The notes under the pieces: generated by a model | Told to the model about the DNA's origin: nothing | The model's input: the letters and a program-made list of their open reading frames with translations, nothing else | Databases searched by the model: none | Part shown: one piece after another, positions 43,202 through 60,257 of the stretch | Numbering within the stretch: position 1 is the first letter of the stretch | Layout of the letters: every line of letters begins with the position of its first letter | Origin: an uncultured Methanomassiliicoccus sp. | GTDB lineage: Archaea; Thermoplasmatota; Thermoplasmata; Methanomassiliicoccales; Methanomassiliicoccaceae | Length of the DNA: 64,000 nucleotides | Direction: 5' to 3' | Assembly (NCBI GenBank): GCA_944319735.1 | Contig: CALUEU010000007.1 | Coordinates: 1,189-65,188 of the forward strand | Made by a program: the position numbers and the translations under genes

Positions 43202-45031
43202 ATGATGAGAACACACACTTGCGGAGAACTCAGGTCAGGCGACATCGGAAAAGATGTTACTATCGCGGGCTGGATCCGCTTCTCAAGAGATCATGGCGGC
43301 GTTTTATTCTTTGACGTTGCTGATACGTATGGAATTACTCAGGCAGTTTACGATCCTGAATCAATAACTGCAGACGGCTATGCTGAACTGGGAGACATTC
43401 TCAAGACATTCAGCAGAGAGTCTGTGATTAAAGTCATAGGGACTGTTAGAAACCGTGTTCCCGGAACCGAAGACGGCAGGAATCCTACCGGCGAGGTAGA
43501 GGTTCTGATCAAAACCGCTGAGCTGTTGAATTCTTCAAAGCCTCTGCCGTTTGAAGTGGCTGAGCAGAAAGGCTCAATGCTTCCTTCCGAGGATCTGAGA
43601 CTTAAGTATCGCTATCTGGACCTCAGAAGGCACGTAATGGCTGAGAATCTGCGTTTCCGCCATCGTGTGGTTACCTCATTAAGGACAGCTTTGAACTCTC
43701 GCGGATTTACTGAGATTGAGACGCCTATGCTCGTGCGCAGCACTCCTGAAGGTGCAAGAGACTTCATCGTACCTTCCCGCAGTTCACCGGGAGATTTCTA
43801 TGCCCTTCCACAGTCTCCTCAGATGTACAAGCAGATGCTGATGGTAGGCGGTATGGACAGATATTTCCAGCTGGCCCGCTGTTTCAGAGATGAAGACTCT
43901 CGTTCCGACAGGCAGCCGGAATTCACACAGATTGATATGGAAATGTCATTTGTCGATGTGTCTGACATTCAGGAGACTATTGAGTTCATGCTTTCTGAGA
44001 TGTGGAAGAACGTCTACGGAGAAGAGCTGAAGACGCCTTTCCCGCGCGTGAGCTTCTATGATGCGATGCACAAATACGGTACAGACGCTCCTGATATCCG
44101 ATATGGTCTCGAACTTCACGACGTTACTGAAATTGTCAGGAACGCAAACTATGAGATTTTTAAGAGGATTCTTTCCAAAAATGGAAAGGTGGAATGCGTC
44201 AACGTTAAGGCTGAATATACCAAGGGCGGCTCTGAGGAAGGCGGTGTCGGACGTAATGAAGTCGACCGTCTGATTGAGTGGGCCAAGTCTCAGGGAATGG
44301 GCGGCCTCACCTGGATGAGGATGACACCTGAAGGTCTGCAGAGCAACATTGTGAAATATTTCCCCGATGAGGTGAAAGATGCTTTAGTTGCTGAGATGGA
44401 TGCCAAAGAAGGAGATCTTCTCCTGTACCTGGCAGGATCTGAGATCGCTGCTCTGAAGGCCGGGGGAGAACTTCGCCGCAAACTTGCTGCAGATTTAGGT
44501 CTGCTGGAAGGAAAGCCCCACCAGTTTGTCTGGCTTGTCGACTGTCCTCTGTTCCAGAGGGACTCCGCCACTGGTCAAATCGAAGCTTTCCATCACATGT
44601 TCGTATGTCCTGAAAACATGGATCTGTCCGGTGAGATTACTGACATCAAAGGTCTGAGCTATGACTTAGTTCTCGACGGGTCTGAAATCGGTTCCGGTTC
44701 CATGAGATGTCATGATCCAGAAGTTCAGCACAAGATCCTAGAAATGATAGGCATGTCTGAAGAAAAGATCCAAGACGAGTTTGGATTCTTCCTTGAAGCT
44801 CTCAGCTTCGGTGCCCCTCCACACGGCGGAATTGCACTCGGAGTCGATCGTTTGATTTCTCTGTTACTTGGATGTGAATCCATCAGGGATGTCATTGCTT
44901 TCCCGAAGAATAAGAAATTCCAGTCTCTTGTCGACGGAGCTCCTGCAAGCGTAGAGGAAGAAAAACTCTCAGAACTGCAGCTCCTTTCTCTTGCCGGTGA
45001 AGACTTCGACGATTCAGATTTCGAGGAATGA
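43202..45031 (+). CDS. aspS: aspartyl-tRNA synthetase, bacterial type (with GAD insertion)
   Basis: 609 aa with LPQSPQ, FRDEDSRSDRQPEFTQID, a long insertion between motifs 2 and 3, and GGIALGVDR motif 3. Archaeal-type AspRS is about 430 aa. Confidence 0.95.
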   Translation: MMRTHTCGELRSGDIGKDVTIAGWIRFSRDHGGVLFFDVADTYGITQAVYDPESITADGYAELGDILKTFSRESVIKVIGTVRNRVPGTEDGRNPTGEVEVLIKTAELLNSSKPLPFEVAEQKGSMLPSEDLRLKYRYLDLRRHVMAENLRFRHRVVTSLRTALNSRGFTEIETPMLVRSTPEGARDFIVPSRSSPGDFYALPQSPQMYKQMLMVGGMDRYFQLARCFRDEDSRSDRQPEFTQIDMEMSFVDVSDIQETIEFMLSEMWKNVYGEELKTPFPRVSFYDAMHKYGTDAPDIRYGLELHDVTEIVRNANYEIFKRILSKNGKVECVNVKAEYTKGGSEEGGVGRNEVDRLIEWAKSQGMGGLTWMRMTPEGLQSNIVKYFPDEVKDALVAEMDAKEGDLLLYLAGSEIAALKAGGELRRKLAADLGLLEGKPHQFVWLVDCPLFQRDSATGQIEAFHHMFVCPENMDLSGEITDIKGLSYDLVLDGSEIGSGSMRCHDPEVQHKILEMIGMSEEKIQDEFGFFLEALSFGAPPHGGIALGVDRLISLLLGCESIRDVIAFPKNKKFQSLVDGAPASVEEEKLSELQLLSLAGEDFDDSDFEE

Positions 45032-45080: not shown

Positions 45081-45264
45081 ATCTCAAACGTCTGTATTTT
45101 ATAATTTCTCACGTATGAGAATCTCAACCTCACTAGCATATATATTTTTCAAATATGCCGCTTCGTAATATTTGCAACTGTGGATTAAGGAGACATCAAT
45201 ACTGTGAAAAATAACTAATCCAGTGTTTCTTTGAATCCACACTATGTAATTTAATGGTGAGCAA

Positions 45265-46389
45265 ATGAAAAATAAGGCTAAGTTAATACTAGCGTCAGCT
45301 GTTTTTGTTGCAGCTTTGATGCTGCTTGTACCCTTGGCCCAGACTGACATGTCTGGGGGGGGGGGGATCGGAAATTCTGACTCTGATCCAATTGTTTTGA
45401 GTGACCCAACAAACTCTAATCTAACTTCTGTTGGTGATAGAGATAGTTTAAAGAGCAATTTAGAGGCTGGGACAAGTGTTCAACTGTCAGATAATATATC
45501 ACTTAGTCTCACAGACTCTATCGAAATTGGCAAGAGTAATAAAACAGACAACATCATTCTTGATCTCAATGGTAAAACTCTAACAATCAACAAAATTGAT
45601 GACAGTAATTCTAACAGACTCGTTGTTGCAGATGGCGCAACAGTAACAATTCAGAATGGTACGATCGTTTACAATAAATCTGCTGGTTCAGCAGAAGGTA
45701 AATCTCCGATCAGAGTAGGATCACTTGCAAAAGACAATCTTAATGGTATACAGTTTTCTACTTTGAATGTTAATAATGTAAATATAATCAGCGGAGAATA
45801 TGGTATAGCAGTTTTTGCTAAAGCCAACCTTAATGTCGAAAATTCAACAATAATCGCTAGGAGTTCTGCTATAGCAACAAATGGATCAACACCATCAGTT
45901 GCATCTGGATCTTCATATGATTCTTCAATAACAATCGGTAGTGGAAACTATGTTTCTACGCAATCATCTGCAATATTTTTCCCTGGTGGTAAAACATTAG
46001 ACATCAATGGCGGAACATTCACAGGAAAAACAGGATTTGACATAAGGTCAGGTACTGTAACCATTGATAATGCAACAATCAATGTTACTGGGAACCCCAG
46101 TGAAACAAAACTAAACAAAGATGGCAGTGCAGAAATGAGTGGACCCACCCCGTGGGGAATGGGAATCGCTGTTTTTGACAGAAAAGATTATGGAATGACT
46201 TTAAATTCTGATAATAATGGAGCAGAATACGCACTCATTAGCATCACAATAGGCACTACAACGAAGATCAACAATGCATGTTACAACTTATATGCTGGAG
46301 ATTACACAATAGGTGTTGCAGCTGATGATGATTGTGGTAAGTTTACAGGTGCTTCTGAACACACCTTTACTCCAATTCATGATATATAG
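45265..46389 (+). CDS. adhesin-like surface protein, N-terminal piece (signal peptide, beta-helix-like repeats)
   Basis: The signal peptide MKNKAKLILASAVFVAALMLLVPLAQT. Asn/Thr/Gly-rich strands. Ends at TAG 46387-89, with the next ORF's frame already open from 46383. Confidence 0.7.
   Translation: MKNKAKLILASAVFVAALMLLVPLAQTDMSGGGGIGNSDSDPIVLSDPTNSNLTSVGDRDSLKSNLEAGTSVQLSDNISLSLTDSIEIGKSNKTDNIILDLNGKTLTINKIDDSNSNRLVVADGATVTIQNGTIVYNKSAGSAEGKSPIRVGSLAKDNLNGIQFSTLNVNNVNIISGEYGIAVFAKANLNVENSTIIARSSAIATNGSTPSVASGSSYDSSITIGSGNYVSTQSSAIFFPGGKTLDINGGTFTGKTGFDIRSGTVTIDNATINVTGNPSETKLNKDGSAEMSGPTPWGMGIAVFDRKDYGMTLNSDNNGAEYALISITIGTTTKINNACYNLYAGDYTIGVAADDDCGKFTGASEHTFTPIHDI
45355..45366 (+). repeat. 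G12 homopolymer inside the coding region
   Basis: Counted directly as 12 consecutive G. It encodes GGGG just after the predicted signal-peptide cleavage region. Confidence 0.95.
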
Positions 46390-46496
46390 CTATATCGGGA
46401 TCTTCTAATTATGAGTGGTCTGCTACGCAATGTACCAACACCTCTTCAAAATTAATAGCGGGTGATCGTACTAGCACTACTGGTGAATTTGATGAA

Positions 46497-49400
46497 GTGC
46501 CGTTAGATATAATGGATAACCGCATATTCGCCAATGGAAATGCAATCACTATTTCAGATGGAACAAACAACAATACTTCAAAGATAACTTATGGAAATAA
46601 CATAATATTTGTTGATAATTTCGATCTTTCAATATTTTCAGTGTTTGGGGGATCAAAGAATGCTTCTGTTAATTCTACAAGTATCACAATGACTGGTGGA
46701 ACTGTCAAAAGTATTTTTGCTGGCGGGTCTGGAGCTGATGCAAGCAATGTCGCAGGTGTAGGAGGCAATACTCTTAGCTATGATGCTGTATCAAAACCAG
46801 ATGCTAATGAGGCCTATAATGCTAATGTAATCATCTCAGGCGGAAAAGTCACAACCAAAGTTGCTGGCGGGGGAGTTGATTATGCATATGTAGGCTCTGT
46901 GAATATTGAAATTTCAGGAAATGCCAAAGTCGGAAATGTAACTGGTGGTGGAAACAATCTCAATACCGGTGTTACTGAAAACACAAACATTGTTGGATAT
47001 GCAAACATCATGATAAAAGATGGTGCTGAAATTAAATATATGGATGGTGAAATAGATTACGGATCTGTATATGGTGGCGGTTTCTCATATGCCTATGTCG
47101 GAGAAGCAGAGATAACAGTCGGAGGCAATGCTTCTGCAGCATACGTCACTGGAGGCGGTATGAATGGTGTCACCAATAAATCCACAATAAATGTACTTGC
47201 TAGTGCAAAGATTGGTTTGCTGTCTGGTGTGAACAGAGGAATAGTTAATGAAATGGAATTTAATATTTTAGACAGCTTCCAAGGAACAATTGATCAGATT
47301 GCATTGGGTGGATGTTCTTCATACGAAGATTCTAACACTCAATTTCATGCAAACACATCTGACGGAGCGATTATAGGGTCAGTAACACTAAACGTTCCTA
47401 ATTCTGCATTAAAATCTTCTGATGAAAATGAACCAACCAAATTCTTCCTTGGAAGGGGATTATATTCCAACTATGGCAAAGGAGGATTTACTTGCAATGG
47501 TGTACAATATTATCAGCATTATACATATTCTTCCACTGCAATTGGTGGAGCAGAAGCCTTGACCTCTGTGATTTCTGTAGATGTTACTGTTAACGGAAAT
47601 GCACTTGTTATTGCAGATGTAGGCGAGACTCACAAATCATACGATCCAACAACATTCATCATTGGAAATGATAAAACATGGACATTTGAAAACGGAGCAA
47701 TTATCTCTTTTACTGCTAGTGAGATTACTACAGAACTTCAAAACGGTGGCAAACTGATTTTTGACGGTGCTAATGTAGGTGAAGATGGATTAGTTCTTAC
47801 TTGTGGTGGAGACATTGAAATTAAAAACACAGATTTCACAAAGAAAGGTCTGTACATCAAGGGCGCTAATAATGTAACAATTCAAAATTGTGAATTTACG
47901 GGCATAATTGAAGATCTGCAATTAGCTAATAATTCTCCACATATGCATCATCCTTCTGCTATTCATGTAGATTCTGCAAAAGGAATCGTAACTATCAAAG
48001 GAAACATCCTTGACAATATACACTCTGAGAGTTTATTGGACAGTATATCTGGTGAAAACAAGAATAAATTCATGGGAATATCAGTAACTTCCAATGACGA
48101 TTCTCCAGGATCCATTACAATCTCAGATAACAAAATCACAGATGTTCTGCACAATGCTATCTACACTATCGGTAAATTCAGTTCTATATCGATTACTAAC
48201 AATGTAATTGAAAACTGGGCATCTCAGTCTACTGAAGATAAAGGACGTGCCATCAGAATTGATATGAAATTGGCATCAAACAATATAGAGGTCTCTGGAA
48301 ACACATTTGTAAAGTCTTATACAGACATAGTTGGATTTGGTAATTCTGGAAAATATGATGACGGAAACATCTTGAAAATTGATGTAGATGCAGCATTCAA
48401 AGACAATGTCTTAGTTCTGTCAGGTATTGACAGCTACAGTTATGCAGATTTATTCATAATTGGATCAGATGAGAACAAGAAGATGGTTACTTTTGATCCC
48501 AATGGTGGATACTACTACACTTCTTCAGAACCAGGAGTATTGTGTTCAATAATTACTGCTGATAGCACAGTTTCTGAACCAGCCGATCCTTTAAGATCTG
48601 GCTCATACTCATTCGACGGATGGTATGATGCAGCAACAGGCGGAAACAAACTAACATTCCCATTAAACATAACTGAAAACACAACTCTCTACGCTAAATG
48701 GACATACACAGGTGGATCAGGAATACCCGTAACACCTCCAACAGACGATCCAGAACCAGAACCGATCGTTCCTGATGAAAACAATAACGTCACTGTTCCT
48801 TCAATTGATGACAAAAAAGCAGATGAGTTAGTTCACAAAGCAGTTTCATCCGGATCAGACTCAATATCAATCATTGATACAAGCGATGTAAAAGGAGAAT
48901 ACACAGAAGTTACTGTTTCTAAATCAGACTTAGAAACAATTTCTAAGAAGATCGAGAACAATAACAACATCAACTCTGTCTCAATCGAAACTTCAGAAGG
49001 AGACATAATCATAGAAAAAGAAGTTCTCAACTCAATCTTAAAAAACACAGACGCAGATTCAGTTTCATTTGAAATAGAAGATGCTAAAGATAAACTGACA
49101 GAAGAACAAAAGAAAGCTGTAGGAGACAGGCCTGTTTACGATATCAACATCAAAGCAGGAAATGAGAACATAACATCATTCGATGGAAAAACAATAACAA
49201 TCTCATTACCTTACACACTCAAACCAGGCGAGGATCCTGAAAATATCGTAGTATACTACGTCAAAGAAGACGGTTCATTAGAAAAGATGAACTGTACTTA
49301 CAAAGACGGTAAAGTAATCTTTGAAACTGATCACCTTTCAAAGTATGTCATAGGATACGAGGAATCGGACAAACCGGTAACTCCTGATACGCCAGACAAT

Positions 49401-49502
49401 AAGAAAGATGATAACAACACAATATACTACGCTGTTGCAGCAATCGTAGTTATTCTGATCATCATTGCTTTAGCATATTACTTCATGAAGAAGAAGCAGT
49501 GA
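46497..49502 (+). CDS. adhesin-like surface protein, C-terminal piece (GG-rung repeats, parallel beta-helix, Listeria-Bacteroides repeat, TM anchor)
   Basis: No signal peptide. Periodic ..I.ISGG.V...V.GGG.. units. VTFDPNGG...FDGWYDA..G.....F....ENTTLYAKW (about 48480-48702). Pro/Glu linker. C-terminal TM IYYAVAAIVVILIIIALAYYF + KKKQ. Confidence 0.75.
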   Translation: MPLDIMDNRIFANGNAITISDGTNNNTSKITYGNNIIFVDNFDLSIFSVFGGSKNASVNSTSITMTGGTVKSIFAGGSGADASNVAGVGGNTLSYDAVSKPDANEAYNANVIISGGKVTTKVAGGGVDYAYVGSVNIEISGNAKVGNVTGGGNNLNTGVTENTNIVGYANIMIKDGAEIKYMDGEIDYGSVYGGGFSYAYVGEAEITVGGNASAAYVTGGGMNGVTNKSTINVLASAKIGLLSGVNRGIVNEMEFNILDSFQGTIDQIALGGCSSYEDSNTQFHANTSDGAIIGSVTLNVPNSALKSSDENEPTKFFLGRGLYSNYGKGGFTCNGVQYYQHYTYSSTAIGGAEALTSVISVDVTVNGNALVIADVGETHKSYDPTTFIIGNDKTWTFENGAIISFTASEITTELQNGGKLIFDGANVGEDGLVLTCGGDIEIKNTDFTKKGLYIKGANNVTIQNCEFTGIIEDLQLANNSPHMHHPSAIHVDSAKGIVTIKGNILDNIHSESLLDSISGENKNKFMGISVTSNDDSPGSITISDNKITDVLHNAIYTIGKFSSISITNNVIENWASQSTEDKGRAIRIDMKLASNNIEVSGNTFVKSYTDIVGFGNSGKYDDGNILKIDVDAAFKDNVLVLSGIDSYSYADLFIIGSDENKKMVTFDPNGGYYYTSSEPGVLCSIITADSTVSEPADPLRSGSYSFDGWYDAATGGNKLTFPLNITENTTLYAKWTYTGGSGIPVTPPTDDPEPEPIVPDENNNVTVPSIDDKKADELVHKAVSSGSDSISIIDTSDVKGEYTEVTVSKSDLETISKKIENNNNINSVSIETSEGDIIIEKEVLNSILKNTDADSVSFEIEDAKDKLTEEQKKAVGDRPVYDINIKAGNENITSFDGKTITISLPYTLKPGEDPENIVVYYVKEDGSLEKMNCTYKDGKVIFETDHLSKYVIGYEESDKPVTPDTPDNKKDDNNTIYYAVAAIVVILIIIALAYYFMKKKQ

Positions 49503-49788
49503 TGATAACAAACAAAACAAATTACTGAACATCAATAGATGTCAGTAAACTCCTTTTTATTTTATCCTTTTCTATTTCTGTAATGTTACTTTATGAAAAG
49601 ATGTATATTGATTGCCCATTCATACAAAATAAGCATTAATCCAAGCGCATTTGATTTTTGAACTAATCTCCATTTGGAATTATAAGTGATATAGCAAATT
49701 CTACAATAGCAATCACAACAGAATAACAATAATACAGTCTTGCATATGCTATTCTTATTGAGATATTTCAAATACTGTATTTGGTATT

Positions 49789-50928
49789 GTGATGCATATG
49801 TCCAATGAGTTTTTGACAGTTAAACTGTCAGGGAAACGATTCAATTCTCATATACTACCAATGGACATTCTATCGGATTTTAAAATTTTAGAAAATATGA
49901 TTGTAGCTCAGGCAAAAGCTTATTATTTCGAAACACACCCCGATCGTAAGAGGCTTCCTAAAGGTTTTATCAACAATATTACTATGGGCTTATCAAACAT
50001 TGAAAAAGGGTCTGTTGTATGTGATGTGGAAATAGCATATGATGCCCAATCCACATACGTTCTAGAAGTTGAAGAGTACTACAGGCACTCAGTCAACGAT
50101 ATTATTCGCATAATTAAAATGGGAGAAAATGACGATTTAAACGATCTCAATCTTTCCGATCAAAAAATTCTTAAAAATTTTGATAAATTTGGATGCAATC
50201 TGAAAGATGACGAATCTATGAGTTTTCTTTCTGCAAACAATAATGTAGCAATCTTGACAAAATCGTCTAGGCAAAAAATGATACTTGCTTCAAAAAATGT
50301 GGAATATAATGAGATTTTAGAAGACTATGGCATTATCTCTGCAGTTGATATAAAAACATCCATTTTTAAAATATCATTTTTCGATAATGAAGACCGTCGC
50401 ATAGATGCACCCTTATCTGATGAATATTCAAAGGCTGTAGGTGATGCTATTTTTGACTCTGAAAAAGGTCATATTGTATGGGTCAAAGGCACAGGGCTAT
50501 TTGACAGAAATGGAAAATTAGTAAAATTGGAATCTATAGATGAATTAGTTTTGTTAGACTCTTTAGATATTCAGGCTAGGCTCCATGAACTGTCATTTCT
50601 CAAAGATGGATGGTATGATGGTATTGGATTAGCCCCTTCGAGTACGTCATTGAAAGAACTCTCATCAATGTTTTCGGAACATTATCCAGAAAACGCACCT
50701 CTTCCACGAATATATCCTACTCCAGAAGGAAATGTGTCTGTAGAATGGACTATAGGCAATTGGGAAATTAGTCTTGAAATTGAATTATGCAGCCTAGTCG
50801 GAACATTTCTTGCAATAGATGTACTAACTAATAAAGAACTTGAAAAAGAAATAAATCTTAAAGAACCAGCTGCATGGAAAGACCTTACTAATTTCATCAC
50901 AAATCTGAATGAGGGTGTAAATGAATAA
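49789..50928 (+). CDS. hypothetical protein (379 aa), unknown family
   Basis: Long ORF at roughly 25-30% GC by spot counts, with no enzymatic motif. The C-terminal module is FLKDGWYDGIGLAP...PRIYPTPEGNVSVEW. The start is GTG 49789 or ATG 49792/49798. Confidence 0.65.
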   Translation: MMHMSNEFLTVKLSGKRFNSHILPMDILSDFKILENMIVAQAKAYYFETHPDRKRLPKGFINNITMGLSNIEKGSVVCDVEIAYDAQSTYVLEVEEYYRHSVNDIIRIIKMGENDDLNDLNLSDQKILKNFDKFGCNLKDDESMSFLSANNNVAILTKSSRQKMILASKNVEYNEILEDYGIISAVDIKTSIFKISFFDNEDRRIDAPLSDEYSKAVGDAIFDSEKGHIVWVKGTGLFDRNGKLVKLESIDELVLLDSLDIQARLHELSFLKDGWYDGIGLAPSSTSLKELSSMFSEHYPENAPLPRIYPTPEGNVSVEWTIGNWEISLEIELCSLVGTFLAIDVLTNKELEKEINLKEPAAWKDLTNFITNLNEGVNE

Positions 50929-51304
50929 TGATACATTTCTTCTAAGACATGTTCATAGAAATTTCATTCAGGCAGGTGTGCCAACTAGACAAGTATTCAG
51001 ACCAACTCCTAAGGATGAGAAACGCCTTTCTGTCTATGATGGGGATATGATTCTACCCGCAGATGCATACAACCATTATACCAAGGAGCTGAAGCAATCT
51101 TCAGCTGGCATAGTTGCAGTAACTTTTAGTGAGTGTGCCTCAGAAAATTTGTCCATATTGGAGGATCGCGCTCCGTTTTCTGAACATGTATCCATTGATT
51201 TCTCTGAGATAAGTAGCAATAATAAGATTGATAAAATTGCACTCAAATTAAAGAATTATGCTAATAAGCGCGGATGGCTATACGGACCCATTTTTGAAAA
51301 ATGA
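50921..51304 (+). CDS. hypothetical protein (127 aa), unknown family
   Basis: ATG 50921 lies inside the stop region of the upstream ORF (8-nt overlap), with GAGGGTG upstream. N-terminal LLRHVHRNF...FRPTPKDEKRLSVYDG. Confidence 0.6.
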   Translation: MNNDTFLLRHVHRNFIQAGVPTRQVFRPTPKDEKRLSVYDGDMILPADAYNHYTKELKQSSAGIVAVTFSECASENLSILEDRAPFSEHVSIDFSEISSNNKIDKIALKLKNYANKRGWLYGPIFEK

Positions 51305-51421
51305 TATTATTTCATTGACTTTGGAAAGATGAATTTAAATTTATAAAGAATTTAAATATAAATCAATCCAACTGAATACATCTTTGATGTTTTTATAACT
51401 TGTTAATTATTAACTGGTGGA

Positions 51422-51898
51422 TTATGACATATCAGTCAACTGCTTCATACACCTTTCAACAAACTTCATGGTCTGTTGAGTAATTTCTGCAGTTTCAGCA
51501 GGAGAACAACCTTCTTTAAGGCATCTTTTGACAACGACGCTCATAGGTTCTCCCACCTCAATAATATGGTGATCGGGATCGTAAATGCGGATAACTCTCT
51601 GCTTCCAGTCATGTGTTTTCATCTTGTGAACATATTCAATCGGATATTTTTCTAACTTATCTATGAATTCATCCAAATCTTCAGTTTCAAAATAAAGTTC
51701 CATATTATTTGACTTTTCAAATATCTCTTCGGGAGAAACATCAATCAGCCATGCAAAATCTTCCTGTATTGCAAATCCTCCGCTGAACGTTACATTCTTG
51801 CCATAATCACAGACGACACGCTGACCAAATATTTCTTTATAGAATTTTTTAGAGACTTCAATGTCTTTCACGGCTAACAAAGGTAGTTTGAATTTCAT
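51422..51898 (-). CDS. VOC (glyoxalase/bleomycin-resistance) family protein
   Basis: MKFKLPLLAVKDIEVSKKFY and the paired beta-alpha-beta-beta-beta layout. ATG 51898 preferred. Confidence 0.7.
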   Translation of the reverse strand: MKFKLPLLAVKDIEVSKKFYKEIFGQRVVCDYGKNVTFSGGFAIQEDFAWLIDVSPEEIFEKSNNMELYFETEDLDEFIDKLEKYPIEYVHKMKTHDWKQRVIRIYDPDHHIIEVGEPMSVVVKRCLKEGCSPAETAEITQQTMKFVERCMKQLTDMS

Positions 51899-51962
51899 AA
51901 GATCACATTTTAATGTATAAAAAGAAATTAACACTCCCTTCAGAGAAGGAAGTGCTGTTTAT

Positions 51963-53309
51963 TTAAAGTCTGTTTTCCAGCTCTTTTTTAGCTTTTTCTG
52001 CAATCTCCTGAGATGAGAATTTTCCTTTAGTTTCTTTCATCACTCTGCCGATGATGAAGTTCGCTGCTTTCGGGTTGTTTCTATAATCCTCAACTACTTC
52101 AGGATGCTCGTCAGCAATTTGAGCTATCAGGCCGTCGACATCTATGTCTAAATCATCAACAGACGCCATTTCTTTACCTTTGGAAAGCGCCTCGATACGC
52201 AGTTTAGCGTCACTGTCAGTAATCCTTCCTTCTGCAGCTTCGGTAACTATCTGCAGCAGAGTTTCATGAAGTTTATCAGACATCTTTTCCTGCAGGCCCT
52301 TCCATCTTGATGACAGAGCACCTAAACACCAGCTTGCAGCCTTTTCCGCTCCGATCTTAGCAGCCAGTTCTTCAAAGATGTCTGCCAGATCCCATGATGT
52401 AGCTACAAGCTGCTTGGCAGTGGAGAACTGCATGCCATACTCTTTCTCAAAGCGTTTAGCTCTGGTCAGAGGAGTCTCTGGAACTTTCAAGGCGGCGGCC
52501 ATTTCTGTGATGGTATATGTTCCCAGGTCGGGCTCGCCGATGTAGCCGTAGTCTTCTTCAAACTCTTTTTCTCTTCCCGGAGTGGTAACGCCGCGCTCCT
52601 CATCGAAGTGCCTGGTCTCACGCACTATTTTCTTTTTAGCGGCAAGCATCTTTGTCTGTCGTATGACTTCAAACTTGAGGCCGCGTTCCACGTTCTTCAC
52701 GCCCGTGATGTTCTTAATCTCCACTCTTTCAACACCTACAGAGATGTTGGCGTCAACCCTCATCGTCTGTTCCTGCCCTGAGACTCCGATAAGCTGCCTC
52801 AGTTCAGTCATCAGGCTGGTAAGGAACTCCCTTGCTTCTGCAGGAGAGCTCATGTCCGGAGCTGTCACGATCTCTACCAGCGGAATGCCGGAACGGTCAT
52901 AGTCAACAAGCGCCAGCTCAGAGCCGGCCTTGCCGACGCGCTTTATCCTTCCCGGGTCTTCTTCAATGTGAACTCTGTTAATGTGAATCTCTTTGCCGCC
53001 GACTACAAACACGCCGTCTGTTCCTACCGGAGACTCATACTGCGTAGTCTGGAAGTTTTTCGGCAAGTCTGGATAGAAGTAAGTCTTTCTGGAAAACCAG
53101 ATTCTGTCAGTTATCGTGCAGCCCATGAATTTAGCAATCAGTATGCCCATCTCCAGAGCTTTGCGGTTGAGAGACGGCTTGGAACCGGGAAATCCCAAAC
53201 AGACCGGGCAGATTGAACCGTTGGGGCCGTTCTCGCTTCCTGTGGGGCAGGAGCAGAAAAGCTTGCTTTTGGTCGGCAGCTGCACATGAACTTCCAATCC
53301 GATCTTCAT
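51963..53309 (-). CDS. gatB: Asp/Glu-tRNA amidotransferase subunit B
   Basis: IGLEVHVQL, CPVCLGFPG and a C-terminal YqeY-like tail. Confidence 0.9.
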   Translation of the reverse strand: MKIGLEVHVQLPTKSKLFCSCPTGSENGPNGSICPVCLGFPGSKPSLNRKALEMGILIAKFMGCTITDRIWFSRKTYFYPDLPKNFQTTQYESPVGTDGVFVVGGKEIHINRVHIEEDPGRIKRVGKAGSELALVDYDRSGIPLVEIVTAPDMSSPAEAREFLTSLMTELRQLIGVSGQEQTMRVDANISVGVERVEIKNITGVKNVERGLKFEVIRQTKMLAAKKKIVRETRHFDEERGVTTPGREKEFEEDYGYIGEPDLGTYTITEMAAALKVPETPLTRAKRFEKEYGMQFSTAKQLVATSWDLADIFEELAAKIGAEKAASWCLGALSSRWKGLQEKMSDKLHETLLQIVTEAAEGRITDSDAKLRIEALSKGKEMASVDDLDIDVDGLIAQIADEHPEVVEDYRNNPKAANFIIGRVMKETKGKFSSQEIAEKAKKELENRL

Positions 53310-54616
53310 AAGCTCACCTCCGGAAACTTGTATTCAAAGTTTGATTCCCAGTTCTCTGCAAATTGCACTAATTTTCCTTCATTCCACTGTGCTGCCACAG
53401 CCTGCAGACCCACAGGCAGGTTGTCATAGTATCCGCATGGTACAGATAGATGAGGCATTCCTGTAAGGTTCGGCGGTACAGTCAGGAAGTCAGCCTGATA
53501 GATCTCCAGCGGAGCCATCGAGGCAATCTCGTCGAAACGTTTGGGGAGGAAAGGCATAGTGGGACTGACAACCGCGTCGCATTCCTCGAAGACTTTATTG
53601 TACTCCCTTATAATCAACTGCCTGACCTGCAGAGCCTTGATGTAATACTTGTTTCTGAAGCCGACCATTCTGGAGAATGTTCCCAGAAGCACTCTTCTTT
53701 TAGCCTCGTCGCCGAACTCTTCCGATCTCGGCTTGGAAAAGAACTCATTGAAGCTTTTGTCGAAATCTTCATTCATTACGCCGAATCTCATTCCGCAGTA
53801 CCTTGCTAAGTTGGTTGAGGCTTCAGATGTTGCCAGGATGTAATAGGCAGGGGTTGCATACTTCAGAGAAGGCATGCTGATCCTGCGGACTTTTATTCCC
53901 ATCTCTTCAAGCTTTTTCAATGCGTTTTCGAAGCATGTCATCACTTCTGCGCTGATGTTCTGCGTCAGCTCTGACGGCACTGCTACTTCTGCCACCTTTC
54001 CGCTCATGTCCAGCTGAGGCTGGGCGCATGATGTTGGGTCTCTTTCATCTTTACCTGATATAACTGGCAGGAACTTTCTCACATCCTTAGATGTTCTGGA
54101 GAGAATGCCCACCTTGTCAAGCGAGTTGCCGTAATCGATAAGACCATATCTTGAAACTCTGCCGTATGTTGGCGTAAAACCGACAACACCGCAGAAAGAG
54201 GCAGGACAGGCAATTGAGCCTCCTGTGCTGACTCCCAATGCCACATGGTCAGGAATAATGCAGGCTGCAGCAGCAGCTCCTCCGGAAGATCCGCCGCAGC
54301 TTCTCTCAGGATCAAAGGGATTCTTGGGAACACCGTATGCAGAATTGACGCTGAATGTTCCGAAGCCGAACTCATCCATGTTCGTCTTGCCGATCAACAG
54401 GCCGCCTTCTTCTCTCATTTTCTTTATCGGGGTGGCGTCAAAAGGAGGTCTGTAGCCTTCCAATATCCTGCTGCCCGCTCTGGCCTGAAATTCTGTAGAG
54501 CATAAGTTGTCCTTAGCTGAAAAATGAAATTTGCAGCCGTCTAATCCTATTTCCTTCAGGCGGTCGGCGAACACCTCGTGCTTGTCAGCGGCCTCTATGA
54601 ACCTCTCTAAGCTCAT
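53306..54616 (-). CDS. gatA: Asp/Glu-tRNA amidotransferase subunit A
   Basis: Amidase signature GGSSGGAAAA with the Ser-cisSer-Lys context. 4-nt overlaps with gatB and gatC. Confidence 0.9.
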   Translation of the reverse strand: MSLERFIEAADKHEVFADRLKEIGLDGCKFHFSAKDNLCSTEFQARAGSRILEGYRPPFDATPIKKMREEGGLLIGKTNMDEFGFGTFSVNSAYGVPKNPFDPERSCGGSSGGAAAAACIIPDHVALGVSTGGSIACPASFCGVVGFTPTYGRVSRYGLIDYGNSLDKVGILSRTSKDVRKFLPVISGKDERDPTSCAQPQLDMSGKVAEVAVPSELTQNISAEVMTCFENALKKLEEMGIKVRRISMPSLKYATPAYYILATSEASTNLARYCGMRFGVMNEDFDKSFNEFFSKPRSEEFGDEAKRRVLLGTFSRMVGFRNKYYIKALQVRQLIIREYNKVFEECDAVVSPTMPFLPKRFDEIASMAPLEIYQADFLTVPPNLTGMPHLSVPCGYYDNLPVGLQAVAAQWNEGKLVQFAENWESNFEYKFPEVSL

Positions 54617-57269: not shown

Positions 57270-57352
57270 CCAATGACATATACTAAGCTGAAGATTTCAT
57301 AGTTTTGATTGTTTTTGTCTGAGATCTAAACATCTTTTGGTCATAGTACAAA

Positions 57353-57673
57353 TTATTCTTTCTTGCAGAACTTGCTGTTCATCAAGGGAATGCCTATCAG
57401 CATGGGCAAGAAAGGTATAATTATTGCATAGGCCACACCAAAGAATCTAAGATCATACAGATAAAATGTTATTATAAGCAAGATGCCAACTGAAAATACT
57501 GTTAAACCAGATACGCGTAACAATCTCTTTTCATTGTATTTGCTGCGCTCTTCATCACTTGCAGTATTATATCCGGCAAGTAGTTCTTTTCCGTATCCAA
57601 ACATCATGATGATTCCGAAAATAATCATTGGAATTGCACCAAATGCCAATACCATCCAGAAAGCTATAGACAT
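57353..57673 (-). CDS. DUF3784-like small membrane protein
   Basis: Two N-terminal TM helices, LLAGYNTASDEERSKYNEK, and two C-terminal TM helices. Confidence 0.6.
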   Translation of the reverse strand: MSIAFWMVLAFGAIPMIIFGIIMMFGYGKELLAGYNTASDEERSKYNEKRLLRVSGLTVFSVGILLIITFYLYDLRFFGVAYAIIIPFLPMLIGIPLMNSKFCKKE

Positions 57674-57751
57674 CTATCTATCAATATTTAAATGAATATA
57701 TTTTGTTATTGCATCTTCCGTTTTGCACAGCGGAACTCTAGACATCATAAC

Positions 57752-57800
57752 CTTACCAATAATCTAAAAATTGGTAAGCTATTGGTAAGGTATTGGTAAG
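57752..57800. repeat. ATTGGTAAG motif: one inverted copy plus three direct copies at 11-nt period
   Basis: CTTACCAAT at 57752-60. ATTGGTAAG at 57770-78, 57781-89 and 57792-800. A fifth copy lies at 58794-58802. Confidence 0.9.
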
Positions 57801-57892
57801 CAATATTTCAAAAATATCGTCAAAATTCTGCTGCCCTCTTGCATTAACATTTCACAGAAGTTATAAAAATTAAGAATGCAATAGTGAACGAT

Positions 57893-58122
57893 GTAGGAGT
57901 TACCGCCCTCTTGCGAGGACGGGGTTCGTAACATGAACCACATGGACTGGATTATTACATACAGTCAAGGATTGCCACGTTGATGCTATCAACTGTGACA
58001 ATCGTCCATAATGAGATGCGCGATTGGCAACTCGTTCGAATCACCTCCTGCGACAAATCTCCGGACACGGTAGGATCGTTTACCAGACTACCCCTACCGA
58101 GTCTGGCTCAGACTTACCGCAA
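57893..58122 (+). other. about 230-nt structured non-coding block, GC-richer than its surroundings (candidate ncRNA, family unknown)
   Basis: Several long helices read by hand (GATTGCCAC-GTTGAT-GCT-ATCAAC-T-GTGACAATC, CGGTAGG...CCTACCG, AGTCTG-GCT-CAGACT, GTAGGAG...CTCCTGC). No credible ORF. Confidence 0.25.
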
Positions 58123-58164
58123 AAGGGACCAACGAGTCCCTTTCACTAGTTTTTTCTGTTTTTA
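58122..58164. terminator. bidirectional-looking terminator hairpin
   Basis: AAAGGGAC-CAACGA-GTCCCTTT followed by TTTTTTCTGTTTTT on the plus strand. On the minus strand it follows the stop of the 58194-58718 gene. Confidence 0.5.
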
Positions 58165-58193
58165 TAATCTGAAGAGTTTGATCTTACTAACAT

Positions 58194-58718
58194 TCAAATC
58201 TTCACTTTCTCCAGATTCTCTTTTACTTCTTGAAAATTGTAAGTTTTGCAGAGCTGTTCTGCCGCCGCATTCATTTTTTCATCGTTGGAAATACAGGCAT
58301 CCTCCATCAAGAAAGGAATCAAGCCGTTGTCAAATGCTGCAAAATATGTGGACATTACGCAGTACTGAGTGATCATGCCTGCAATCAAGATATTGTCGCA
58401 GCCGCTTTTCTTGATAACATCAGCCAGTTCAGTCTCGCGGAAGCTGTTCATATGCTTCTTGTAAACCGTGATGTCTGACGAATGTGTTTCAATTTTATCG
58501 AAGTATTCATCCCCATCCGGTCCCATGTCTGGATGTCCATGGCTGGCACCTAAGTACTTAACAAAAATTACCGGCCTTTTAGCTTCTCTGAACATCTTGG
58601 TTACTTTATTGATATTTTCAATCTGCTTCTCAAACGGCACGCTGACTGAGAACTTCTTCTGTACATCGATTATCACCAAAGCCAGTCTGCGTTCGTTTTT
58701 GTCAGGGACATCTATCAT
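58194..58718 (-). CDS. isochorismatase-family cysteine hydrolase
   Basis: LALVIIDVQKKF (Asp), a Lys region and the catalytic Cys context ILIAGMITQYCV. Confidence 0.8.
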   Translation of the reverse strand: MIDVPDKNERRLALVIIDVQKKFSVSVPFEKQIENINKVTKMFREAKRPVIFVKYLGASHGHPDMGPDGDEYFDKIETHSSDITVYKKHMNSFRETELADVIKKSGCDNILIAGMITQYCVMSTYFAAFDNGLIPFLMEDACISNDEKMNAAAEQLCKTYNFQEVKENLEKVKI

Positions 58719-58889
58719 TCAAATCCGAAGCTGCATTCCAGCCTAAATATTGTGCTGCTGATCTTTTACCGTGACATTTCTAATATTCAATAAATTGGTA
58801 AGTATTTGGCACGATGTCTGTGGGATGTTCAATTTTTTGATACAAGCAAACTTACAATTATATGAACTTCAAAGTCTCTCGGACATCAA

Positions 58890-59339
58890 ATGTCAGTCAC
58901 AGACAAACAAATTGAACTGCTGTATTCAAAAAATAACACTGAGGCATATGAAGCGCTGAAAGAACTTCAGAATATGAGCTCCGAATCAGACGAAGTCTAC
59001 GCACATCTGGATGAATTCATATCAATGCTCAACAGTGACAATTCTTATCTGCGCAGCAGAGGTCTGACGCTGATTGCTGCTAATGTCAAATGGGATCATG
59101 GCAAAAAGATCGACTCAATCATCGACAGTTATCTGCAGCACATTACCGACGTAAAGCCCATTACCTCAAGACTATGCATCAAGACTCTGCCTGAATTGGC
59201 TGAATCCAAGCCTGAATTGAAAAACAAAATAATCTCTGCTCTGCAGAATGCAGATTTGTCAGAGTATAAAGACAGCATGCGACCGCTGATCCGCAGCGAT
59301 ATCGAAACTGTTCTGGAAAAACTAACGAAAAATCTTTAA
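58890..59339 (+). CDS. hypothetical all-helical (HEAT/ARM-like) protein
   Basis: 149-aa helical-repeat-like ORF. No catalytic motif. Confidence 0.4.
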   Translation: MSVTDKQIELLYSKNNTEAYEALKELQNMSSESDEVYAHLDEFISMLNSDNSYLRSRGLTLIAANVKWDHGKKIDSIIDSYLQHITDVKPITSRLCIKTLPELAESKPELKNKIISALQNADLSEYKDSMRPLIRSDIETVLEKLTKNL

Positions 59340-59375
59340 AATTCTGATTAAGAGAAATAAAGCAGCGTGGGCTGC

Positions 59376-60257
59376 TTATTTCTGTCTTAATTCTCCTAAT
59401 GTGGCGGTGCGCTCAGCAAAGGCATTGTGCTTATGAATGGACTCCTCGCTCTCGCTTTTTACCGTCAGTCTTACTGAATCGGGAAGATCTGTGTACTTTT
59501 CAACGACCTTCATGAGAATTGTGCGCACCACATCTTCTACAAACTTGGGGTTCTGGTGAGCCCGGAGGACTACCGCCGCTTCATCATCTCTCTTGAGAAG
59601 CTCGTGGGTAGAGGAGGAAAATGAGCTCTCCAGAAGGTCTATCATTCCGTCGGCTTCAACATCGCATTCTTCAGGAGTCTCCACAATCAAGGTGGCAACG
59701 TTCCTCTGGTTATGGGTGATGACTGGCAGATCATCAGCGAATACGACTGAGCCTTTGTGAAGCTCCCTCACAGTTTCCATAGCGCAGGGGCAGGCGGTCA
59801 TACCGACAACCTCAACGCCGATGGTTTTCTTCAGTGGTTCTGAACCCTCGCTCACAGACTTGGCAAGTATCTTAAAAGTCTCAAGCGTCTTTTTTCCGCT
59901 GGGTCCTGGACGTTCTGTAAAATATTCCGCCGACATGTTGACTTCGGCATATGTGGCGTATTCATGCTTCTGTCTCAGTTTGTGACAGATGCCGGCAGCA
60001 ACCACTTCAATTCCCTGAGCAGGAGTTTCGAGAGTGGAATTGATGACTTCATTAATGGCTTCCAGATTACGGGAAAGGTGAGATCCTTTTTGAGTAGGAG
60101 GTAGATCTACGAATACATCAATGTTGCAGAATAGTGTTGTAACCCTTCCTGCTCTGGCTACCTTAATGGGCTTTCTGACATTGGTAACACCCACTCGTGT
60201 CAGAAGGTAACTGCCATCAAGTCTGCGGTTCTGAACGTCACTTTTAATGTTAACCAC
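59376..60257 (-). CDS. mptA: GTP cyclohydrolase MptA (FolE2 family)
   Basis: SDVQNRR...LTRVGVTNVRKPIKV N-terminus and a CPC metal site (MTACPCAMET) typical of FolE2/MptA. Confidence 0.8.
   Translation of the reverse strand: MVNIKSDVQNRRLDGSYLLTRVGVTNVRKPIKVARAGRVTTLFCNIDVFVDLPPTQKGSHLSRNLEAINEVINSTLETPAQGIEVVAAGICHKLRQKHEYATYAEVNMSAEYFTERPGPSGKKTLETFKILAKSVSEGSEPLKKTIGVEVVGMTACPCAMETVRELHKGSVVFADDLPVITHNQRNVATLIVETPEECDVEADGMIDLLESSFSSSTHELLKRDDEAAVVLRAHQNPKFVEDVVRTILMKVVEKYTDLPDSVRLTVKSESEESIHKHNAFAERTATLGELRQK

Follow-up and report, generated by a model that had tools for sequence, protein, structure and literature searches.

Which function could an overlapping pair of genes have in the chromosome of a gut methanogen, when neither product finds a relative in Pfam and its neighbours are housekeeping genes? 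The question is raised by a cassette of two genes, A and B, in a stretch of 64,000 nucleotides (nt) from contig CALUEU010000007.1 of an uncultured Methanomassiliicoccus sp., referred to as the window in the following. An earlier note, made from the sequence letters without database searches, had described two open reading frames (ORFs) of 379 and 127 amino acids (aa), had found no family for either of them and had suggested a toxin-antitoxin or other defence-type module. Both ORFs were confirmed at 49789..50928 and 50921..51304, all peptide motifs quoted in the note are present, and the pair is, by its profile matches, a full-length archaeal member of the catalogued candidate family PDC-M32 of PADLOC. 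The elements of the cassette are as follows.

49789..50928, plus strand: ORF of gene A, open from GTG, 379 aa; this numbering is used for the structural model
49798..50928, plus strand: gene A (PDC-M32A homologue) from its ATG start (MSNEF...), 376 aa; the start used by homologues
50911..50917, plus strand: Shine-Dalgarno-like GAGGGTG for gene B within the 3' end of A, from reading the sequence
50921..50928, plus strand: overlap of A stop and B start, 8 nt, ATGAATAA, with ATG at 50921-50923 and TAA at 50926-50928
50921..51304, plus strand: gene B (PDC-M32B homologue), 127 aa, from the ORF list

The size of 379 aa is correct for the frame open from GTG, but all close homologues as well as independent gene calls begin A at ATG 49798, which gives 376 aa. 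The 8-nt overlap and the GAGGGTG located 4–10 nt 5' of the ATG of B are found as they had been described, and as far as can be read from this arrangement the overlap is one of translational coupling.

In PADLOC, A matches PDC-M32A (PDLC04575) with an E-value of 1.2e-106 over residues 4-373 (profile 1-370 of 375), with three more M32A models also matching, and B matches PDC-M32B (PDLC04579) with an E-value of 7.9e-45 over residues 1-122 (profile 1-121 of 123). In PHROGs, A corresponds to phrog_30544 (E 5e-60) and B to phrog_31579 (E 3e-30), both entries without a function. Neither protein gave a match above noise in Pfam or NCBIfam (for B none up to a Pfam E-value of 1), and 41 B and 23 A homologues scanned singly against both collections at E up to 10 gave nothing consistent. 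Sequence-profile searches against the PDB with three alignments at E up to 10 resulted in zero matches and tblastn of A against GenBank phages in none. The failure to place the proteins in a family therefore stands for Pfam and NCBIfam, but not for PADLOC and PHROGs.

The family goes back to a "guilt-by-embedding" screen by Payne, Hughes, Fineran and Jackson (bioRxiv 10.1101/2024.01.29.577857), in which gene cassettes lying within BREX, DISARM or type I restriction-modification loci were gathered. From it 145 cassettes were retained as untested 'phage defence candidates', and PDC-M32 among them is listed in the supplementary table as CAS_00128 (FAM_01821>>FAM_00608), count 98, 'assign as candidate' (bioRxiv 10.1101/2024.01.29.577857). 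The sole other paper we found naming PDC-M32 reports both components in a Sinorhizobium prophage (PMC12429752). The window copy agrees with the family in both full-length model matches, in adjacency, in the order A-then-B and in the single strand, and relatives of it are embedded in type I restriction-modification operons. It differs in belonging to an archaeon that is Methanomassiliicoccus intestinalis-like and in standing between housekeeping genes, embedded in no BREX, DISARM, type I restriction or other defence system; embedding was the basis of discovery and is not demanded of each member. The earlier expectation that such a system would probably be undescribed is superseded by the catalogued family, yet we found no account of PDC-M32 in archaea in the literature, and the family is absent from those parts of the supplements of an archaeal defence survey that were accessible.

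How constant the pair is elsewhere was followed in two samples. The A-side sample consists of 80 loci from a genome-wide scan of GTDB species representatives with an A motif, all of them bacterial and from more than 10 phyla, and the B-side sample of 80 metagenome loci and 11 IMG/VR contigs carrying A-B, giving 91 B-side loci and 171 loci in total. B lies directly 3' of A on the same strand in 71/80 A-side loci, and A or its C-terminal domain directly 5' of B in 90/91 B-side loci, the single exception having just 3 nt of 5' sequence; thus the adjacency in other genomes, which the note had proposed to check, is borne out. The order A-then-B occurs in 161 of the 171 loci. As A runs 1–11 nt into the start of B in 52 of 63 scorable loci (44 of the 4-nt type), translational coupling appears to be a family trait, and judged from these loci the layout is far beyond chance.

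The predicted structure of A (mean predicted local distance difference test score, pLDDT, of 88.4) falls into three parts, and it is the last of these that constantly accompanies B.

49798..50214, plus strand: N-terminal module (about residues 1-142), in the model a beta-hairpin, long helices and a small sheet
50215..50553, plus strand: central beta-barrel of the model, with the order b1-b2-b3-helix-b4-b5 in residues 172-255
50554..50925, plus strand: acidic C-terminal 'KDGW' domain (residues 256-379), from conservation and model
50602-50628, plus strand: KDGWxDGxG motif in the C-terminal domain, here K272-D-G-W-Y-D-G-I-G

In the model, two helices, a sheet of five strands and a further long helix make up the C-terminal domain. 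With 10 of the 16 invariant columns of A it is better conserved than any other part of the protein, and it is acidic in 23/23 homologues (isoelectric point 4.05-4.62, about 4.3). The N-terminal module is swapped or missing in short variants and has only a weak match to phrog_6603. For the barrel, Foldseek returned oligonucleotide/oligosaccharide-binding (OB) folds, namely Cdc13 OB1 (3oiq, probability 0.91), Stn1 (3kf6, 0.94), OBody (4gn3, 0.95) and SilF (8bbz, 0.99), with E-values of only 0.02-0.13 and low whole-chain template-modelling (TM) scores, so in the model the barrel is probably OB-fold-like. This weak OB-like barrel is the sole DNA-binding candidate in A, as Pfam-type scans gave no helix-turn-helix (HTH), ribbon-helix-helix (RHH) or AbrB match. 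A homologue search with the C-terminal domain alone had one match, the decayed archaeal allele P0149 described below, and PHROG scans with the separate domains of A and with stand-alone C-terminal-domain proteins gave phrog_30544 and weakly phrog_6603 only, both of no known function.

All 135 complete A-like ORFs that are followed by B possess the C-terminal domain. Most of them (123) have 363-477 aa; the other 12, with 116-235 aa, consist of the C-terminal domain with nothing else, with part of the barrel or with an unrelated N-terminus, which is a zinc-ribbon-like segment in L178 and L179. The smallest form of the pair thus measures some 120-150 aa in the first protein and some 125 aa in the second, as is usual for toxin-antitoxin pairs. 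The C-terminal domain is also found on its own (L069, L078 and L080, the L069 copy between hsdM and hsdS) or 5' of a mere remnant of B (L075), and A without B is seen in 7 complete bacterial ORFs and in the archaeal loci L089, L090 and L182. No intact B without the C-terminal domain of A was found among the 171 loci. L024 has an intact A next to a B whose initial ~35 residues run on into an unrelated tail, and in L020 B is missing and a kinase-like ORF follows 3' of an intact A; where decay is seen it strikes B first or both genes at once (L024 and L020; L085). An alternative effector taking the place of B 3' of A was considered and dropped, as in L020 and L024 B has been lost or disrupted and not swapped.

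Judged from these comparisons, the asymmetry is what would be expected if B were harmful without A, and it is the opposite of what a reversed polarity predicts, in which the large A would be the effector and the small B its inhibitor or regulator. Reversed polarity would agree with A being large and multi-domain like many defence effectors and sensors, and small partners are sometimes the antitoxins. But A occurs without B and stays under selection, B never occurs without the C-terminal domain of A, and an upstream gene overlapping a downstream one is the usual antitoxin-then-toxin order. Moreover, the invariant residues of A are mostly Gly, Trp, Pro, Phe and Leu and, going by their type, mostly structural, whereas the invariant positions of B are polar and form a cluster. 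We therefore regard the reversed arrangement as very improbable. The division proposed in the earlier note, a large antidote- or sensor-like protein and a small effector, fits the observed asymmetry.

The same features bring the pair close to type II toxin-antitoxin modules, in which the antitoxin gene comes first and overlaps the toxin gene and the antitoxin is modular with a C-terminal toxin-binding region. Both have two co-directional overlapping genes, an upstream product with an acidic C-terminal domain and swappable N-termini, and a small, better conserved second protein that is never alone (identity to bacterial homologues is ~50% for B and ~33-38% for A). For type II systems a toxin is never expected without its antitoxin, and an antitoxin may persist alone; on the comparative evidence B and A behave in this way. 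The differences are the size of A, which with 376 aa far exceeds that of typical antitoxins, its lack of a recognisable DNA-binding domain of the HTH, RHH or AbrB kind, and the absence of both proteins from the toxin and antitoxin families described so far.

B is predicted as a compact single alpha/beta domain with the element order b-b-a-b-a-b-b-a (pLDDT 95.2, predicted TM score 0.89). In a library clustered at 50% identity, a search for homologues at E <= 1e-3 gave 1332 cluster representatives, and in nearly all of the 150 representatives listed B is a stand-alone protein of 120-140 aa. Foldseek found no significant neighbour in the PDB (best E 0.63, TM <= 0.3) or in BFVD, where the best match is an unnamed viral protein of 149 aa (E 0.087, TM 0.51). 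Taken together, of the profile and structure searches proposed in the note, PADLOC gave a hit for both proteins, but Pfam and the fold search with B came back empty and A showed weak OB-type similarity.

Conservation in B was scored in 41 and in 137 diverse homologues, the latter with a median identity of 40% to the window protein. Among the 137, the best-kept residues are R9 (0.97), F26 (0.99), P28, S37 (0.99), S61, G63 and H89 (0.95), followed by a second tier of E71 (0.89), R117 (0.87), C72 (0.86) and D32 (0.85). In the model R9 lies on strand 1, S37 on strand 2 with a helix next to it, and E71 past strand 3. The codons of the four central polar residues are:

50945-50947, plus strand: R9
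51029-51031, plus strand: S37
51131-51133, plus strand: E71
51185-51187, plus strand: H89

A conserved polar cluster on such a small compact protein suggests an enzyme or a specific binding site. Contrary to the statement that B contains no DxD, D40-G41-D42 is near-invariant in the 41 sequences. Two further ideas on B, D40-G-D42 as a nucleotidyltransferase motif and C72/H89 as a papain-like Cys-His pair, were both dropped, since no fold match supports them; compared with these two families, the residue spacing in B looked wrong.

The resemblance to small ADP-ribosyltransferase (ART) or RES-type toxins seen in the earlier note was correct in so far as the Arg, Ser and Glu are among the best-conserved residues of B, but no profile or fold ties B to these families. 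B might still be a minimal NAD+-using toxin of the ART/RES type with an Arg-Ser-Glu set, a proposal which concerns the chemistry of B only and is compatible with B being the effector of a toxin-antitoxin type pair. It is favoured by the conservation of R9, S37 and E71 in the 137 homologues; yet H89 is equally conserved. Against it, the 41 members scanned at E up to 10 gave no ART, RES or DarT match in Pfam, NCBIfam and PADLOC, the three profiles found no PDB sequence, and no ART or RES structure is among the 50 Foldseek PDB matches listed. The five strands of B are also fewer than would be expected for an ART core, and the ART-type split beta-sheet fold was not found in B. RES-Xre and DarTG share with A-B the two-gene layout, a small putative toxin and the conserved Arg, Ser and Glu, but neither profiles nor folds relate B to RES, DarT or other ART families, and A has neither an Xre domain nor a macrodomain. 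Such a chemistry has in our view only a slim chance.

The genomic contexts of the relatives point to conflict systems. Neighbouring ORFs of the 80 bacterial loci were clustered and then checked against Pfam; 20/80 loci have type I restriction genes at a distance of no more than 6 kb, and the neighbours include HsdS (17 loci), HsdM (16), HsdR (9), N6_N4 methylase (4), ResIII helicase (3), Fic (3) and ImmA/IrrE (3). Type III-like methylase and Res genes are found near the pair in other loci, and a SMODS cyclase adjoins it in L024. On the Limnohabitans plasmid pTEGF4 the pair (401 + 139 aa) stands amid three RelE/ParE pairs and VapBC, a further likeness to type II toxin-antitoxin modules. In the viral contig L177 it has a large DNA methylase on one side and a UvrD-like helicase on the other, and in the provirus L171 a CI-like repressor (HTH_3 + Peptidase_S24) is followed by A-B, with replication genes on the other side. 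The place beside a cI-type repressor is the classic site of prophage-borne exclusion genes such as RexAB of phage lambda, a two-gene abortive-infection pair of which RexB is a membrane protein. In L171, A-B resembles RexAB in its place beside a CI-like repressor, but there is no homology, and in A and B alike no sign of an association with membranes is seen, for which no formal test was made. With the PDC-M32 match and these restriction, plasmid toxin-antitoxin and prophage-repressor contexts, the idea of a tightly coupled conflict-type module has gained support.

Unrelated phyla repeatedly show the one-strand order hsdM-A-B-hsdS(-x-hsdR), with loci from Spirochaetia, Nitrosomonadales, Dehalococcoidia, Lentisphaerae and Nitrospirales, and the lone C-terminal domain of L069 is likewise embedded between hsdM and hsdS. 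Both would be in line with a guard of restriction like PrrC, in which A-B would lie latent in the type I restriction complex and fire upon a phage anti-restriction protein. PrrC is a single ABC-ATPase-type protein, an anticodon nuclease whose gene lies in a type I restriction locus, EcoprrI in this comparison. Many bacterial A-B relatives resemble it in sitting between type I hsd genes, but they have no sequence or domain relation to it, and most PDC-M32 copies have no restriction neighbours: at least 56 of the 80 loci and also the window are without restriction genes in the available flanks. As most loci lack such genes and the pair is found amid plasmid toxin-antitoxin pairs and beside a phage repressor as well, A-B appears to be autonomous, and we consider a restriction guard improbable.

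A short A variant of 224 aa, comprising barrel and C-terminal domain, was observed without B in the type I restriction locus L066 (5072-8332). It is flanked by a 191-aa ORF that is TIR-like by eye and by a 546-aa AAA_15/AAA_21 ATPase and may belong to a different embedded system re-using the KDGW domain.

The archaeal relatives show what happens to the cassette within one clade. The exact sequences of A (376 aa) and B are present in a public protein collection, and the 90% cluster of B includes the hypothetical proteins TQS82716.1 and WP_400194936.1 of Candidatus Methanomassiliicoccus intestinalis; this cluster is seen on more than 100 contigs. Four contig sets have the same gat locus, three of them with a similar flank divergence from the window (gatB ~96% aa identity):

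L081/L082: A and B intact; A 98% identical to that of the window, gatB 99.6% for L081
L083/L084: A and B intact; A 89% identical to that of the window
L085/L086: both genes decayed, with ~724 nt deleted in A and ~233 nt in B
L089 (1993-3120), L090 and L182: intact A of 375 aa, 56% identical to that of the window, no B

In L085, positions 1972-2650 are equivalent to 49764-51304 of the window; the decayed A is an ORF of 143 aa (P0149) consisting of N-terminal residues and the C-terminal domain, and of B only the two ends are left, in different frames. In the lineage with A alone the stop of A abuts the glyoxalase gene, and gatB is still 96% identical to that of the window. The ratio of nonsynonymous to synonymous substitution rates (dN/dS) between window and L083 is 0.11 for A and 0.09 for B, so by this measure both genes of the window are under purifying selection, and as dN/dS between two solo-A genes is 0.15, A seems to be maintained without B. 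These values and the decayed and solo-A sister lineages argue that A-B is functional where intact and dispensable overall; the cassette is now a dispensable chromosomal gene pair.

Synonymous divergence (dS) deserves a remark of its own. Against L083 it amounts to 0.48 for A and 0.55 for B, with 1.97 for the glyoxalase gene, 0.96 for gatB and 1.07 for gatA; against L081 the values are 0.017 and 0.051, with 0.23, 0.095 and 0.096. The dS of A and B (49798-51304) is thus two- to five-fold below that of the flanks (51422-54616), which may mean that related lineages exchanged the cassette recently, or that AT-rich codons are strongly constrained.

The chromosomal position, fixed across related archaeal lineages, might also speak for a non-toxic function, in which A and B would form a two-subunit accessory, for example a nucleic-acid-binding or stress complex, without any addiction or defence logic. 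Obligate subunits would co-occur as well, both genes and also the solo A are under purifying selection, and no mobile-element signatures are seen in the window. What stands against such a function is the patchy distribution with nearly all relatives non-archaeal, the occurrence of copies inside restriction operons, among toxin-antitoxin genes on a plasmid, in the immunity region of a provirus and on IMG/VR contigs, the repeated decay in sister lineages, and the one-way asymmetry with B never alone, which is unexpected between equal partners. We consider it unlikely, but a stronger candidate than the restriction guard.

In three collections, all relatives outside the Methanomassiliicoccus clade are bacterial or come from unassigned metagenome or viral contigs, the nearest having ~38% identity in A and 55% in B, and the cassette is AT-rich relative to its flanks. 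On these comparisons the clade ancestor probably acquired the cassette from bacteria; the acquisition by transfer that had been proposed is thus plausible, as the relatives outside the clade are bacterial or unassigned and the cassette lies in a low-GC insert. The A-motif scan of the GTDB species representatives gave no archaeal locus, though KDGWYDGIG of the window fits the pattern. As KDGWYDGRE of the decayed allele and KDGWCDGKG of the solo-A allele are outside the pattern, the representative Methanomassiliicoccus genomes may carry the decayed or solo-A states, or no cassette. In L083 (8046-9332), L085 and L089 we also observed a gene for a Fic-domain protein of 426-428 aa ~6 kb 3' of the cassette, past the HAD hydrolase gene. 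Tblastn found no homologue of it anywhere in the window, where the corresponding area (57300-59400) carries an isochorismatase-family gene (58194-58718, minus strand).

How could the two proteins work together? Our best estimate, which we hold at about an even chance, is a module of the toxin-antitoxin or abortive-infection type with B as effector, the C-terminal domain of A as its neutraliser and the rest of A as accessory. B would be a small enzyme-like effector with the polar cluster R9, S37, E71 and H89 plus D32, S61, C72 and R117, and it would be made in step with A by translational coupling. The acidic KDGW domain of A would bind B and hold it inactive. The N-terminal module and the OB-like barrel might sense a trigger, for example a viral nucleic acid or protein, or alternatively bind nucleic acid for regulation. 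Once A is removed, titrated or remodelled, B would be freed and could bring the cell to a halt, its substrate being a nucleic acid or a nucleotide. Family membership, operon layout, the asymmetry of occurrence, the defence and mobile-element contexts and purifying selection are read directly from the data; the toxicity of B, its neutralisation by the C-terminal domain of A, the sensor role, the trigger and the target are our inferences.

Several points weigh against this proposal. As no catalytic fold can be recognised in B, its description as an enzyme comes from conservation alone, and the OB-fold assignment of A is weak with E > 0.01. The B-side metagenome loci are the best 80 and biased to close relatives, so that the pairing with A is read from these and not from the 1182 more distant representatives of B. 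The purifying selection on solo A may mean that A has a function independent of B. In the window, the neighbours are housekeeping genes, with no defence genes and no mobile-element hallmarks. Finally, we found no experimental test of PDC-M32 in the literature, and no protection against a virus is reported for any member.

A bolder version of the toxin-antitoxin type proposal is that B is the founder of a new enzymatic toxin fold with R9, S37, E71 and H89 as active site, and that A, as a modular antitoxin of a new kind with KDGW as neutraliser and the OB-like barrel as sensor of viral nucleic acid, completes a working abortive-infection module. This we consider possible but rather doubtful; if true, a human-gut methanogen would add to the small number of archaea in which a defence system of bacterial type has been shown to work.

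PDC-M32 was already catalogued and is widespread, occurring in more than 10 bacterial phyla, on plasmids and in proviruses; new is the archaeal copy. Our analysis adds the domain dissection with the KDGW domain as constant partner of B, the polarity argument from the asymmetric occurrence of A and B, a short list of candidate catalytic residues in B and, from the archaeal clade, three naturally occurring states of the locus, namely the pair intact, A without B, and both genes decayed. With the dissection, the polarity argument and these natural knock-outs the system becomes directly testable. It is also a modest example of bacterial conflict genes retained in the chromosome of a gut methanogen.

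The surroundings of the cassette in the window are made up as follows.

43202-45031: aspS, class II Asp-tRNA synthetase with GAD domain
45100..51940, no strand: low-GC insert with 33-39% GC between aspS and gatB/gatA, from GC profile and annotation
45265-46389, plus strand: ORF of 374 aa at the start of the insert, no Pfam match
51963-54616: gatB, then gatA

In addition to the 374-aa ORF the insert contains a gene for a 1001-aa adhesin-like protein, which carries a Listeria-Bacteroides repeat, followed by A, B and a glyoxalase-family gene; 3' of gatB/gatA lie genes for a CMD protein, a TPR protein and a HAD hydrolase. The AT-rich island of the earlier note is real as a low-GC stretch of ~45.1-52 kb, but its figures of 25% GC here and 55% in porA were wrong: A has 34.0% and B 38.0%, the whole window 43.2% and gatB/gatA 49%, and no 1-kb window of the 64-kb stretch exceeds 49.5%. 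AspS and gatB/gatA are functionally linked through the transamidation route to Asn-tRNA. As these partners are split by the 6.9-kb low-GC insert, their separation suggests that the insert landed between formerly adjacent genes. A mobile-element reading of the insert was dropped: there is no integrase and no tRNA near the cassette and no Rfam match, and the insert flanks carry short chance repeats only.

Two minor observations concern the immediate vicinity of A. Just 5' of it a 61-aa ORF (49586-49771) is open on the minus strand, and at the equivalent position of L083 (213-350, minus strand) a 45-aa gene had been called; nothing supports a real gene here. A 16-nt near-repeat, GAYGGATGGTATGATG, occurs at 48615-48630 and 50605-50620 and encodes DGWYD in both copies, once in the Listeria-Bacteroides repeat of the adhesin-like protein and once in the KDGW motif of A, a resemblance that is probably due to chance.

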